Positions 17,338 through 26,973 of a stretch of 26,973 nt of DNA are shown here, in pieces. The position numbers were made by a program, and so were the translations under genes. The notes beneath the pieces are model-generated. The model saw only the letters and a list, made by a program, of their open reading frames with translations. It had not been told where the DNA came from and ran no database searches. Within the stretch, counting starts at the first letter, position 1, and each line of letters starts with the position of its first letter. Source of the stretch: an uncultured Planctomycetia bacterium (lineage in GTDB: Bacteria; Omnitrophota; Gorgyraeia; 1-14-0-20-64-10); assembly GCA_964372575.1 (NCBI GenBank), contig CAYJSX010000002.1, positions 1-26,973 of the forward strand. The letters are read 5' to 3'.

Positions 17338-17344
17338 TTTCTTT

Positions 17345-17383
17345 AGCTTAAAGCTTACCGCTTACAGCTTATGGCTTACGGCT
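17345..17383. repeat. 7-bp tandem array filling the rodZ-rimO gap
   Basis: AGCTTAA AGCTTAC CGCTTAC AGCTTAT GGCTTAC GGCT; contains the rodZ TAA. Confidence 0.85.
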
Positions 17384-20422: not shown

Positions 20423-22798
20423 TTAAGCGGGACGCTCCCACTGGCGTTCCCGGAATCCGCTGCGGCCGCTGGCCGAAGGGGATCGGCGAGGCGGGCCTGC
20501 CCGCCCTGCGCCTCCCAGGGCAGGCGGGCGGCGAGATTCCCCTCCAGGGTAGTGGCGCTCTCGCGGCCACCGGCCAGGGTCTGCGCCGCCAGTATGACGC
20601 CGGGGGTAATCGTCTCCTGCGCGGGGCGGCCGCTCCGGGCCTCTGCGTGGAGGCACCGGAGGTGTGCCCGGCGGCAAGAGGGCCTGCTTGTGGCTTAAGT
20701 TGATTCGGCCCATCGAGTCGATCTCCACCACCTTGACGGCCAAGGTGTCTCCCAACTTGACCACATCCTCCACCTTGGGTACAAACTGATCGGAGAGCTC
20801 TGAAACGTGGCAGAGCCCCTCTTTGCCGGGCGAGATCTCGCAGAAGGCGCCGAAGTTGGTGATCCTTTTCACCACCCCCTGGTAGACCTTCCCGATCTCG
20901 GCCTCCGCGGTCAACCCCTTGATCATGCCGACGGCCTTCTCCGAGGCATGCCGATCGGCCGAGGCCACGAGGACGGTTCCATCGTCCTCCACCTCAATGG
21001 TGGCCCCAGACTCCTTGGTGATCCTCCGGATCATCTTGCCGCCTGGGCCAATCAGCTCGCCGATCTTCTCCGGGTCAATCTTCAAGATGGTGATCCGCGG
21101 CGCGTAGGGAGAAAGCTCTGGCCGGGGGGCCGGAAGGGCGGCTCGGATCCGTTCCAAGACCTGCGCCCGGCCCGACTTCGACTGTTCAATCGCTTCTCTC
21201 AAGAGATCCACCTTCACCCCTGAAAGCTTCAGGTCGAGCTGCAGCGCGGTGATCCCCTTGGAGGTTCCGGTGATCTTGAAATCCATGTCGCCGAAGTGGT
21301 CTTCCATGCCGATGATGTCGGTCAGGATCGCGTAGCGATCCCCCTCCTTCACCAGGCCCATCGCGATTCCAACCACCGGCTCCTTGATGGGGACGCCGGC
21401 ATCCATCAAGGCCAGGGTACCGCCGCAAACCGTGGCCATCGAAGAGGAGCCGTTCGATTCCAAAATCTCGGAGACCACCCGAACGGTATAAGGAAAGGCC
21501 TCCTTGGAGGGCATCACCGCCTTCAGGGCCCGCTCGGCCAAGGCCCCGTGGCCGATCTCCCGCCGGCCAGGTCCCCGAACCGGACGGATCTCTCCCACCG
21601 AGAAGGGAGGAAAGCTGTAGTGCAGCATGAACGACTTGTACGTCTTTCCCGCAAGGGCGTCGATCATCTGCTCATCGGAAGAGGTGCCCAGCGTGGCGGC
21701 GGCCAGAGACTGCGTTTGGCCGCGGGTAAAGAGCCCGGAGCCGTGGGTTCTGGGCAGAATCCCCACGTCGCAGGTAATGGGGCGCACCGTCGTGAAATCC
21801 CGCCCATCGACGCGCCGGCGCTCTGTGAGGACCATCTCGCGCATCAGGCTTCGCTCCAGGGTCTCCAGCGCCTCCTCCACAGCCGCCTTGGTGATGGCCG
21901 GCTCGCCCGGCGCGGTCGCCGCCGCCTTAGGGGCCGCCGGAGAAAGCTCCTTCAAGATCTCCTCGGAGATCGCCCGCATCTCCTCGCCCCCCTGTTCCTT
22001 CTCCACCTGAGAGCGTATCAGCTCTTCCATCCTGTCCTTCGCCAGACGGCGGACCTCTTCCAGCAGTTTGGAATCCAAGGTGGCCTCAGGGAATTCCTGC
22101 CTTTGGAATCCGGCCTTGGCCAAGAGCTCTTCCTGAAGGCGAATCGAGGCCTGACCCTCCTGCTGGCCGAAGCGCATCGCCTCCACGACCACCTCTTCTG
22201 GAACCTCCTTGGCGATGGCTTCCACCATCACGATCCCTTCGGGGTTGGAAACCACCACGAGGTCCAAGTCTCCCTGTTCCAGCTCAGCATAGGTAGGGTT
22301 GAGCACGAAGGTGCCGTTTACCCAGCCCACCCGAGCCGCCCCCAGTCGGGGGGCGACCGGAGCCCCGGCCAGCCCCAGGGCGGTGGAGGCCCCCAGGATC
22401 GCCAGGATGTCGGGGTCGTTGGCCCCATCGTGAGAGAGAACCAGGGCCATCACCTGTACCTCGTTCCTGAAGCCCTTGGGAAAGAGGGGCCGAATCGGCC
22501 GGTCCACCAGGCGCGCGGTGAGGATCTCCTTCTCGGAGGGGCGCCCTTCCCTCTTGAAGAAGCCGCCCGGGATCTTGCCGGCGGCGTAGGTCTTCTCTTG
22601 ATACTCGACGGTAAGCGGCAGAAAGTTCTTCTCCGGCTTGGGCTCCTTGGCGATCACCACAGAAACCAGGACCACCGTACCGCCGTACTGAACCATGCAG
22701 GCCCCATCGGCCTGCTTGGCCAAGCGGCCAGTTTCTAAAACAAGTTCTTCCTTGCCGTAGGCGCACGAAACGCGCCGCACGTTCTCTTGAACGCTCAC
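20423..22798 (-). CDS. pnp: Polyribonucleotide nucleotidyltransferase
   Basis: ETGRLAKQADG, FFKREGRPSEKEILTARLVDRPIRPLF, RTHGSGLFTRGQTQ, GDMDFK, KH and S1 domains. Confidence 0.98.
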   Translation of the reverse strand: MSVQENVRRVSCAYGKEELVLETGRLAKQADGACMVQYGGTVVLVSVVIAKEPKPEKNFLPLTVEYQEKTYAAGKIPGGFFKREGRPSEKEILTARLVDRPIRPLFPKGFRNEVQVMALVLSHDGANDPDILAILGASTALGLAGAPVAPRLGAARVGWVNGTFVLNPTYAELEQGDLDLVVVSNPEGIVMVEAIAKEVPEEVVVEAMRFGQQEGQASIRLQEELLAKAGFQRQEFPEATLDSKLLEEVRRLAKDRMEELIRSQVEKEQGGEEMRAISEEILKELSPAAPKAAATAPGEPAITKAAVEEALETLERSLMREMVLTERRRVDGRDFTTVRPITCDVGILPRTHGSGLFTRGQTQSLAAATLGTSSDEQMIDALAGKTYKSFMLHYSFPPFSVGEIRPVRGPGRREIGHGALAERALKAVMPSKEAFPYTVRVVSEILESNGSSSMATVCGGTLALMDAGVPIKEPVVGIAMGLVKEGDRYAILTDIIGMEDHFGDMDFKITGTSKGITALQLDLKLSGVKVDLLREAIEQSKSGRAQVLERIRAALPAPRPELSPYAPRITILKIDPEKIGELIGPGGKMIRRITKESGATIEVEDDGTVLVASADRHASEKAVGMIKGLTAEAEIGKVYQGVVKRITNFGAFCEISPGKEGLCHVSELSDQFVPKVEDVVKLGDTLAVKVVEIDSMGRINLSHKQALLPPGTPPVPPRRGPERPPRAGDDYPRRHTGGADPGRWPRERHYPGGESRRPPALGGAGRAGPPRRSPSASGRSGFRERQWERPA

Positions 22799-25803: not shown

Positions 25804-26162
25804 GCCTTGCCTTCCTCCTTCAGCCCCCCCAGCAGCTTGGAGATCCGGATGCCCTCGGCCACCGTGGGATCCAACCGAAAGCTGATCTCCGGCGTCACCC
25901 GGATGCGCAGTCTTTCACCGATTAGTTTCCGGATGAAACCAGCGGCGGACTTCAACCCCGCCTCGGTCGCTTGAGCCGAACCGCCGCGCCCACCGGCTTC
26001 TAAGAGGCTGAAGTAGACCGTCGCGTGCTCAAGGTCGGCCGTCAGATCCACCCGGGTCACCGTGACAAAGCCGATCCGAGGGTCCTTGAGCTCATGCTGA
26101 AGGATCCTCGCCACCTCCTCTTTGATCGCCTCGGCCACCCGGTTTAAACGTGGGGAAGCCAT
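25800..26162 (-). CDS. rbfA: Ribosome-binding factor A
   Basis: RLNRVAEAIKEEVARIL..KDPRIGFVTVTRVDLTADL..LRIRVTPEISFRLD; ATG 26162. Confidence 0.95.
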   Translation of the reverse strand: MASPRLNRVAEAIKEEVARILQHELKDPRIGFVTVTRVDLTADLEHATVYFSLLEAGGRGGSAQATEAGLKSAAGFIRKLIGERLRIRVTPEISFRLDPTVAEGIRISKLLGGLKEEGKA

Positions 26163-26190
26163 TTCATCCTCAAGATCAAACGCTCCTGTT

Positions 26191-26472
26191 TCAGAACAGT
26201 TCAATGGAATAATCGGTCAGTTCCAGATCCCGCTGCCGGCGGGAGGCCTCCACCATCCGGTTGAGGAGGCTGTCCACGCTGGCCCGGTCAACCGCCACAC
26301 AGGCGGCCGCCAGGGTGCTGACCTGCCACTTGTCATGCTCATCCGCCTCGCAGACAGAGACGTTGAACTTACTTCTCAATCTCGTTTTGAACCCCAGCAG
26401 GACCTGGCGCTTGGCCTTGAGCGATTGCGCCTCAGGGATGCGAAGCTTCAACTGAAGTAGCCCAATGGTCAT
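26191..26472 (-). CDS. DUF503 (YlxP-like) protein
   Basis: AQSLKAKRQVL..LRSKFNVSVCEADEHDKWQ; usual position just upstream of rbfA. Confidence 0.88.
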   Translation of the reverse strand: MTIGLLQLKLRIPEAQSLKAKRQVLLGFKTRLRSKFNVSVCEADEHDKWQVSTLAAACVAVDRASVDSLLNRMVEASRRQRDLELTDYSIELF

Positions 26473-26480
26473 AGAAAAAC

Positions 26481-26511
26481 AGTTAAGAGTTAAAAGTGGA
26501 GAGTGAAGAAT
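26481..26511. repeat. 7-bp tandem array downstream of the four-helix-bundle gene
   Basis: AGTTAAG AGTTAAA AGTGGAG AGTGAAG AAT. Confidence 0.85.
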
Positions 26512-26897
26512 TAATCTCCATCTTGTGCTATGCCCTTCTTGGAGCTAAGCAAAATGGAAGATAAGATCTTGATGAGCTGTTGAGTTTCATCAAACAGGTC
26601 ACCCAGCTTCTCCCCCTTTACAACCTCGGACGCCTCAATAAGACGAAGCCAGTAGAGAGTTTCAAGAACTTCTTTGTACGCGATCGTCATTCGAGCGATG
26701 AAATCCGCTCTACTCTGCGCCCCCTGAGCCTCATGGATGTTCGCTCCGATCGAAGTTCCCGAGCGGAGGACCTGCTGGCCTAGGACTCGACCGGCGCTGT
26801 CCTCTTCCAACTCCCTGTACAACTGGATGATACGAAGCGAATAGCTGATGCTTCGCTCGGCAATATCCGGTTTCTTGACTTCTGCCGGATTTTTCAT
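26511..26897 (-). CDS. Four helix bundle protein (23S rRNA intervening-sequence protein family)
   Basis: DIAERSISYSLRIIQLY..QQVLRSGTSIGANIHEAQGAQSRADFIARMTIAYKE..ETLYWLRLI. Confidence 0.92.
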   Translation of the reverse strand: MKNPAEVKKPDIAERSISYSLRIIQLYRELEEDSAGRVLGQQVLRSGTSIGANIHEAQGAQSRADFIARMTIAYKEVLETLYWLRLIEASEVVKGEKLGDLFDETQQLIKILSSILLSSKKGIAQDGD

Positions 26898-26973
26898 TCT
26901 TCACTCTTAACTCTTAACTTTTCACTCTTAACTCTTAACTTTTCACTCTTAACTCTTAACTTTTCACTCTTAA
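26896..26973. repeat. 7-bp tandem array (at least 10 units, 21-bp super-period) upstream of the four-helix-bundle gene, truncated by the window end
   Basis: CTTCACT CTTAACT CTTAACT, then (TTTCACT CTTAACT CTTAACT)x2, TTTCACT CTTAA; reverse complement of the 26481 array family. Confidence 0.95.

Follow-up and report, generated by a model that had tools for sequence, protein, structure and literature searches.

The S23p/IVS protein family is very large and has solved structures, and to our knowledge it has been without a function for thirty years. Avd is a pentamer that binds RNA in the particle of diversity-generating retroelements (DGRs). As for repeats, the heptamer simple-sequence repeats of cyanobacteria (STRR) have no known partner, and the palindromic elements of Rickettsia are small repeats that are inserted in frame in housekeeping genes and translated. 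The closest described system is the intervening sequence (IVS) in helix 45 of the Coxiella burnetii 23S rRNA: a 28-bp stem cut by RNase III, with two to three copies of GACAGAT before the start codon of its S23p gene, a variable repeat number and a decaying ORF (PMC4990558). Full-text literature searches returned this paper alone as a published link between a gene and heptamers, i.e. only inside rRNA, and no partner gene is named in the heptamer-repeat papers found in this way.

Here we analyze a gene of the same family that stands outside rRNA. The window, a stretch of 26,973 nt, is one whole contig of an Omnitrophota metagenome-assembled genome (G000: 1.50 Mb, 225 contigs, 60% GC, 80.7% complete), and the gene lies at its end between two inverted heptamer arrays. 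RbfA homologues from related genomes bear the label Candidatus Omnitrophica. We consider the locus probably to be an IVS-type insertion cassette: a promoter-less S23p/PF05635 gene and two inverted heptamer arrays that travel with it, the heptamer being specific to that subfamily of proteins.

Layout of the locus and the encoded protein

On the minus strand the order is an array (26973-26898), the gene for a 128-aa protein (26897-26511), a second array (26514-26478) and DUF503, after which follow rbfA, a DHH phosphoesterase-like gene, truB, ribF, rpsO and pnp. The upstream neighbour of the first array and the full size of that array lie past the end of the contig. The features discussed below are:

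26898..26973, minus strand: upstream arm (TRF period 7, 10.9 copies), directly adjoining the ATG and cut off by the end of the contig
26896-26907, unstranded: inner 12-bp pairing partner ATTCTTCACTCT, pairing perfectly with 26500-26511 and taking in the A and U of the AUG
26511..26897, minus strand: four-helix-bundle gene (PF05635, TIGR02436; S23p / 23S_rRNA_IVP family), 128 aa, intact
26500-26511, unstranded: inner 12-bp pairing partner AGAGTGAAGAAT, pairing perfectly with 26896-26907 and overlapping one stop-codon base
26478..26514, minus strand: downstream arm of about five heptamers, the reverse complement of the upstream units, overlapping the stop codon
26191..26472, minus strand: DUF503 gene (Pfam), the host gene directly downstream of the cassette
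17344..17383, minus strand: gene-less array of the AGCNGTA family, filling the rodZ-rimO spacer, with the unit of the cassette on contig C6
16110..16141, minus strand: gene-less array of the GGGTGAA family, in frame in the TRAM domain of rimO, where it reads SPPHPSPFTP

Read on the gene strand, the upstream heptamers are AGAGTGA, AAAGTTA and AGAGTTA, arranged in a 21-nt super-period (26900-26973; 3.5 copies, 100% matches in TRF). The downstream array (TRF 26481-26514, period 7, 4.9 copies) fills the 38-nt gap between the stop codon of the gene (26511-26513) and the start of DUF503 (26472). An inverted-repeat search defines arms of 37 nt with 84% complementarity, or 81-85% over the hits I1-I6. 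The two arms are complementary at 30 of 37 positions; of 3978 random pairs of windows drawn from the same genome at a spacing of 410 nt, none exceeded 24. In the predicted minimum free energy structure of the RNA the ORF is closed by helices of 12+18+8+4 bp (z = -3.2 against shuffles). The original prediction had described this architecture in some detail, and it holds up well: TRF and the inverted-repeat search agree on reverse-complementary heptamer arrays enclosing the gene, the perfect inner 12 bp do reach the start and stop codons, a stem of about 30 bp is predicted to loop out the ORF, the upstream array has its ten or more units with the 21-nt super-period, and the downstream array fills the space up to DUF503.

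In metagenomes the upstream array has a word depth of 40-1900x against 5-13x on the flanking genes. No Rfam match was found in 26100-26973 and no defence-system model (PADLOC) matched. Elsewhere in the window, the polynucleotide phosphorylase ORF (20423-22798, minus strand) carries an Arg/Pro/Gly-rich tail of about 90 residues beyond its S1 domain.

Family membership of the 128-aa protein is clear from PF05635 (E 1e-21, 77.6 bits at a cut-off of 33.8) and TIGR02436 (92.5 bits at a cut-off of 24). It carries the motif RxxxSxxxNxxE (R45, S49, N53, E56); the family motif is GxxRxxxSxxxNxxE (PMC3936711). In 31 homologues N53 and E56 never vary, and both R45 and S49 reach a conservation of 90% or more. 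The AlphaFold model (pLDDT 88) has four helices and resembles most closely the solved fold of BT_0352 (2RLD; TM 0.78/0.92, 43% identity, phmmer E 4e-24), followed by Xcc0516 (2GSC; TM 0.72-0.78), both of them pentamers.

Avd of the Bordetella phage retroelement (4DWL, 8UB7) is a more distant relative with a TM of about 0.6-0.7. Given this fold resemblance, and the match of some homologues to a second Pfam model (PF22296), it might be argued that the gene encodes the Avd accessory protein of a DGR. However, sequence identity to Avd is just 11%, a template/variable repeat pair is absent, and no reverse transcriptase domain (RVT_1) was found in the 80.7%-complete genome or in the 26,973-nt stretch. 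This last result argues that the cassette is not a DGR, and we give the Avd reading next to no probability.

Cassette copies, armed relatives and empty sites

A Pfam search together with a seed HMM shows that the genome holds three PF05635 genes. A jackhmmer search started from the 128-aa protein recovered that protein alone, because the proteins of the other two copies, which the Pfam search and the seed HMM did recover, are too distant. Each of the three stands between inverted heptamer arrays that reach right up to its start and stop codons, and each cassette has a unit of its own: AGAGTGA/AGAGTTA at 26897..26511, AGCNGTA on contig C6 (between serA and purA) and AGCGAAT on contig C197 (between gltA and mdh). 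Two of the copies have decayed, C6 by a frameshift near the 3' end and C197 by an in-frame TAA, so that the copy at 26897..26511 is the only intact one. The genes have a GC content of 47-50% (50% for the intact copy) as compared to 60% for the genome. A REP-like repeat of the type found on contig C223 also adjoins the C6 cassette.

These copies do not behave like a classical IS or MITE, since no terminal inverted repeats are common to them: there are three copies and three arm units. No target-site duplication was seen at three filled/empty comparisons, all of them between diverged genomes, and no movement or catalytic protein was seen for the cassettes. The idea that five heptamers per arm would match a pentamer is unsupported as well; arms have 3.5-5.5 units, and the upstream arm at 26898..26973 has at least 11.

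The family occurs in 21 of 40 relative genomes. Here flank complementarity reaches at least 16 of 20 positions at no fewer than 15 of the 28 evaluable PF05635 loci, against 5 of 446 random genes. These are ungapped complementarity counts; RNAduplex flank energies proved uninformative as a control at 60% GC, with a control mean of -32 kcal/mol. Left and right units lie within one mismatch of each other at 19 of 23 loci, whereas this applies to 9% of the cases when arms of different loci are combined. Inverted period-7 flanks and left-right co-variation, both of which the original prediction had proposed as tests for four-helix-bundle genes in this and related genomes, are thus found: the flanks at 3 of 3 genes of the source genome and at 15 or more of 28 loci in relatives, and the co-variation when the unit changes.

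Filled and empty sites can be compared at all three loci. The gltA-mdh spacer holds a cassette of about 430 nt in the source genome, against 13 nt in the same-genus genome G001 and 4 nt in G004, without arrays and without the gene. In five relatives serA and purA, the neighbours of the C6 cassette, either overlap or leave a spacer of no more than 19 nt. For DUF503, G001 shows a tRNA gene, 23 nt and then DUF503, with the cassette absent. Because empty junctions exist at all three loci, arms and gene come and go together: the very short spacers between co-directional host genes contain either the complete unit or none of it. This agrees with the earlier suggestion of a compact cassette; the empty sites and the paired left and right units both speak for flanks that form part of it.

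The proposed infB-DUF503 setting, on the other hand, is not supported. In 12 same-family relatives DUF503 follows a tRNA-Arg-like gene or its remnant, and infB of the source genome is located on contig C82, which ends 26 nt past the infB stop and has no such array there. On this placement and the tRNA before DUF503 in relatives, infB was rejected as upstream neighbour. The tRNA gene expected before DUF503 is not in the 80.7%-complete source assembly. In a relative (L011) the gap upstream of DUF503 contains a gene-less heptamer hairpin of the AGTCGTG type.

Further variation is seen in public sequencing runs. Those with the cassette sequence are DNA metagenomes only. One study contributes three runs in which the gene occurs. 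In a second study, a run covers rbfA-DUF503 at 100% identity and 13x depth as far as base 26511, but the sampled words of the gene are absent, as judged from a word index and contigs that can both have holes. We regard it as a candidate for a presence/absence polymorphism with its boundary at the innermost base of the arm. Contigs from the same runs also show two AGAGTKA arms joined by loops of 12-30 nt. Two such loops open with the same eight bases as the ORF, ATGAAAAA (nine in the X3 loop), as internal-deletion derivatives would.

Eight of ten cassettes of the AGAGTKA subfamily are co-directional within operons (e.g. glyQ-glyS, moxR-DUF58 and panD-lgt), and promoter and terminator scans found no promoter-like or terminator-like sites at the cassette. 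It is therefore likely that the cassette would be transcribed by read-through from the host operon. At one locus in another organism (L191) two PF05635 genes occupy successive junctions of a single operon, one after moxR and one after DUF58. In such a transcript the arms would form a stem of at least 30 bp round the ORF, burying the AUG and the purine-rich leader. RNase III acts on stems of this kind in the homologous 23S rRNA elements. The source genome contains an rnc gene, and by analogy cleavage of the cassette stem appears plausible.

A stricter version of this idea holds that the cassette is an RNA intervening element, in which the stem would direct removal of the ORF from the operon transcript, followed by joining of the flanks. 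The predicted stem encloses exactly the ORF, and the homologous rRNA elements are indeed excised from their precursor (PMC4990558). Nonetheless, the rRNA fragments are not re-ligated, no ligation mechanism is encoded, and arrays within hisH, leuS and rimO keep the reading frame open, as if retained in the mRNA and translated. The chance that rejoining takes place seems to us very small.

Repeat units, protein subfamilies and gene-less arrays

The insertion cassette is characterized not only by its arms but by the unit of which these consist. Homologues of the 128-aa protein at 60-70% identity number in the hundreds and occur in many phyla. The 13 closest ones with DNA context (62-70% identical), which include Deltaproteobacteria, Dehalococcoidia, Desulfobacterales and Acidobacteriota, are all armed with ARARTKA-type units (AGAGTTA, AGAGTGA, AGAATGA, AAAATGA/AAAATGC and GGAGTGA), two of them with a one-sided array. 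Four-fold synonymous sites of the homologues are 17-48% identical to those of the 26897..26511 gene, where 25% is expected by composition; saturation is thus reached or nearly so. Homologues further away (38-56% identical; Bacteroidota, Clostridia) are mostly unarmed, with arms in only 8 of 76 cases and built from other units. For the C6-type protein, the closest homologue (70% identical) retains an AGCTNTA unit, whereas among 19 homologues at greater distance about 16 have arms, made of other units. For the C197-type protein no homologue above 56% identity was found.

Over 25 armed loci, among which related loci are not independent, the mean unit distance is 1.0 for pairs with at least 60% protein identity, as compared to 2.3-3.0 otherwise (Mantel permutation p about 0.0015). 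This conservation of the unit within a protein subfamily, which is new in the present analysis, rests mainly on one subfamily (13 loci) and one pair. Since the unit is kept across phyla despite near-saturated synonymous sites, it appears to be selected per cassette lineage. The constraint cannot come from a host factor common to all cassettes, given that those of one cell retain different units. As the sole product of the cassette, the protein would be, we infer, what naturally reads the repeat, and its recognition of the unit would be the likeliest reason for the selection.

In the genome as a whole, period-7 arrays number 85 against 4-12 for periods 5, 8, 10 and 11, making them roughly tenfold commoner. 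About 87 AT-containing arrays fall into six unit families. Many gene-less arrays are inverted pairs with loops of 4-30 nt, or modules of about 36 nt that are nearly identical at several loci. The modules consist of an A-rich spacer with a GCAG end followed by four heptamers, and stand in tandem at C5:5566-5712, C9:1260-1444 and C176:2700-2864 of the source genome. Every array family begins after GCAG, and the units end in AG. The two gene-less arrays of the window had been taken for remnants of the cassette, but with units GGGTGAA (16110) and AGCNGTA (17344) they belong to sister families.

Not every gene-less family has a cassette of its own, as the source genome has cassettes for three of about six families. 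No cognate cassette was detected for the top gene-less families of G008 (GGACAGA) and G004 (GTTCGTG). This, the few arrays in G001 (a genome lacking PF05635 genes) and the mostly unarmed distant homologues count against the cassette reading.

Figures for array position and orientation relative to genes are only indicative, given that the crude gene calls run ORFs through arrays. AGAGTKA arrays are found directly 5' of start codons on contigs C18, C184 and C93 (a 155-nt array before uvrC). Others lie in frame within hisH and leuS (C31:4369-4404 and C23:2033-2065 of the source genome). In related genera the same hisH and leuS loops contain heptamers with a different unit, palindromes of another kind or, in G004, a hairpin of heptamers. 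A second type of repeat between genes is the palindrome GGGGTCAGACCCC..GGGGTCTGACCCC (source genome C18:1830-1870, and L005), which is also present in frame within leuS of G008.

Three genomes that have PF05635 genes show array densities of 5.7, 5.5 and 3.6 per 100 kb; in four genomes that lack them the values are 1.4, 0.3, 0 and 0. For these seven kin genomes the link between array density and PF05635 genes is only suggestive.

How might gene and arrays be connected? By homology the protein would be a pentameric ring like Avd, and it may bind its own heptamer repeats as RNA or DNA. Such binding would keep the unit under selection and would connect the gene with how the gene-less arrays spread or are maintained, comparable to RAYT and REP. 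In this light PF05635 proteins might be sequence-specific binders of 7-nt repeats, with one word per subfamily, whose cassettes propagate or maintain cognate arrays; we put this forward tentatively, as a possibility that falls short of being probable. Equally tentative is the corollary of a REP/RAYT-like partnership that would operate with a non-enzymatic ring protein and host functions. By analogy, a parallel for a gene beside cognate repeats is offered by the same genome, which contains two RAYT-like Y1_Tnp genes (C223:164-499 and C30:9163-9498), each flanked by its own palindromic REP-like sequences.

The same observations have been weighed against a domesticated regulator, i.e. a host RNA- or DNA-binding protein for which the arrays serve as operators and in autoregulation, forming a regulon rather than a selfish element. 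The unit is conserved with the protein subfamily, many gene-less arrays are located at gene 5' ends or fill stop-start spacers, and arrays are rare in relatives without a PF05635 gene. There is a parallel in the TAACTGA repeats before start codons in Beggiatoaceae (PMC4679880). However, two of the three genes are broken and yet their array families persist, including the most abundant one. Gene presence varies between close relatives and between near-identical metagenome strains, the GC content of the gene is foreign to the host genome, arrays also occur inside coding sequences, and the set of host genes is different at each locus. Overall we find a regulator unlikely, albeit not far-fetched.

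It might also be argued that the repeats are independent, slippage-prone or REP-like arrays arising alone and the gene merely landing or surviving between them. Heptamers are over-represented in many bacteria, with inverted pairs lacking a named gene in Xanthomonas (PMC4692102). In the source genome gene-less arrays far outnumber the genes, G001 has a few arrays but no PF05635 gene, and the hisH and leuS loops bear different units or other palindromes across genera. Nonetheless, at three of three sites the arms are missing from the empty alleles along with the gene, and in each of the three copies they directly adjoin its start and stop codons. In addition, the unit tracks the protein subfamily across phyla at near-saturated synonymous sites, and flank complementarity separates PF05635 loci (15/28) from random genes (5/446). 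Mere coincidence of gene and repeats is for these reasons quite improbable, and the insertion cassette is retained as the preferred explanation.

Comparison with known systems

Summarizing what the locus may mean, it links a protein family without a function to the unexplained excess of heptamers in bacteria, and may yield a readable code from protein to repeat. It also suggests that intervening sequences in rRNA represent one of the insertion sites of a far more widespread element. If the proteins do bind their repeats, this would explain the origin of ORF-bearing rRNA IVSs and of in-frame heptamer inserts in housekeeping genes, and would also account for the long-noted excess of heptamer repeats. 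For annotation purposes, the arrays account for such genes being found on short contigs, where they break assemblies.

Several repeat systems resemble parts of the cassette. GGGAATC of Xanthomonas (PMC4692102) and TAACTGA of Beggiatoaceae (PMC4679880) are abundant intergenic 7-nt tandem units, often before start codons, and the Xanthomonas heptamers often form convergent pairs (PMC4692102). No protein family is named for either, whereas arrays in the source genome match the units of four-helix-bundle cassettes. Rickettsia palindromic elements differ in sequence type, and in the source genome only gene-less arrays, not the cassette, are inside ORFs. Classical IS and MITE ends are shared by all copies, whereas cassette arms differ between copies. 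Avd (4DWL, 8UB7) has the same fold and Pfam family, but the cassette comes without a reverse transcriptase or template/variable repeats.

The likeness to REP/REPIN sequences and their RAYT genes goes further. In both systems a gene is flanked by inverted cognate repeats, each gene lineage has a repeat family of its own, gene-less copies (often hairpin doublets) are scattered over the genome, and the distribution among relatives is patchy. Differences concern the protein and the repeat: RAYT is an HUH/Y1 transposase, whereas the cassette protein matches PF05635 only and is a four-helix bundle without HUH/Y1 motifs. REP is a single palindrome as opposed to tandem heptamers, and the Y1_Tnp genes of the source genome carry other, palindromic REPs.

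Closest of all is the 23S rRNA IVS, a resemblance that the original prediction had pointed out and that the Coxiella element, with its 28-bp stem and heptamers (PMC4990558), shows to be accurate. IVS and cassette share the protein family, a length of about 430 nt, a terminal stem of about 28-30 bp round the ORF, tandem heptamers right before the start codon, an AG-rich leader, variation in the number of heptamers and an ORF prone to decay. The IVSs of Coxiella and Leptospira lie in a 23S helix (25 or 45), whereas the cassettes lie between protein-coding genes, with three copies and three units in one genome and dozens of gene-less arrays that have those units. Cutting by RNase III belongs to the Coxiella IVS, while the present cassette is known from DNA alone. 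By analogy, then, the design of the cassette appears to be that of the ORF-bearing 23S rRNA intervening sequence, but placed in protein-coding operons.
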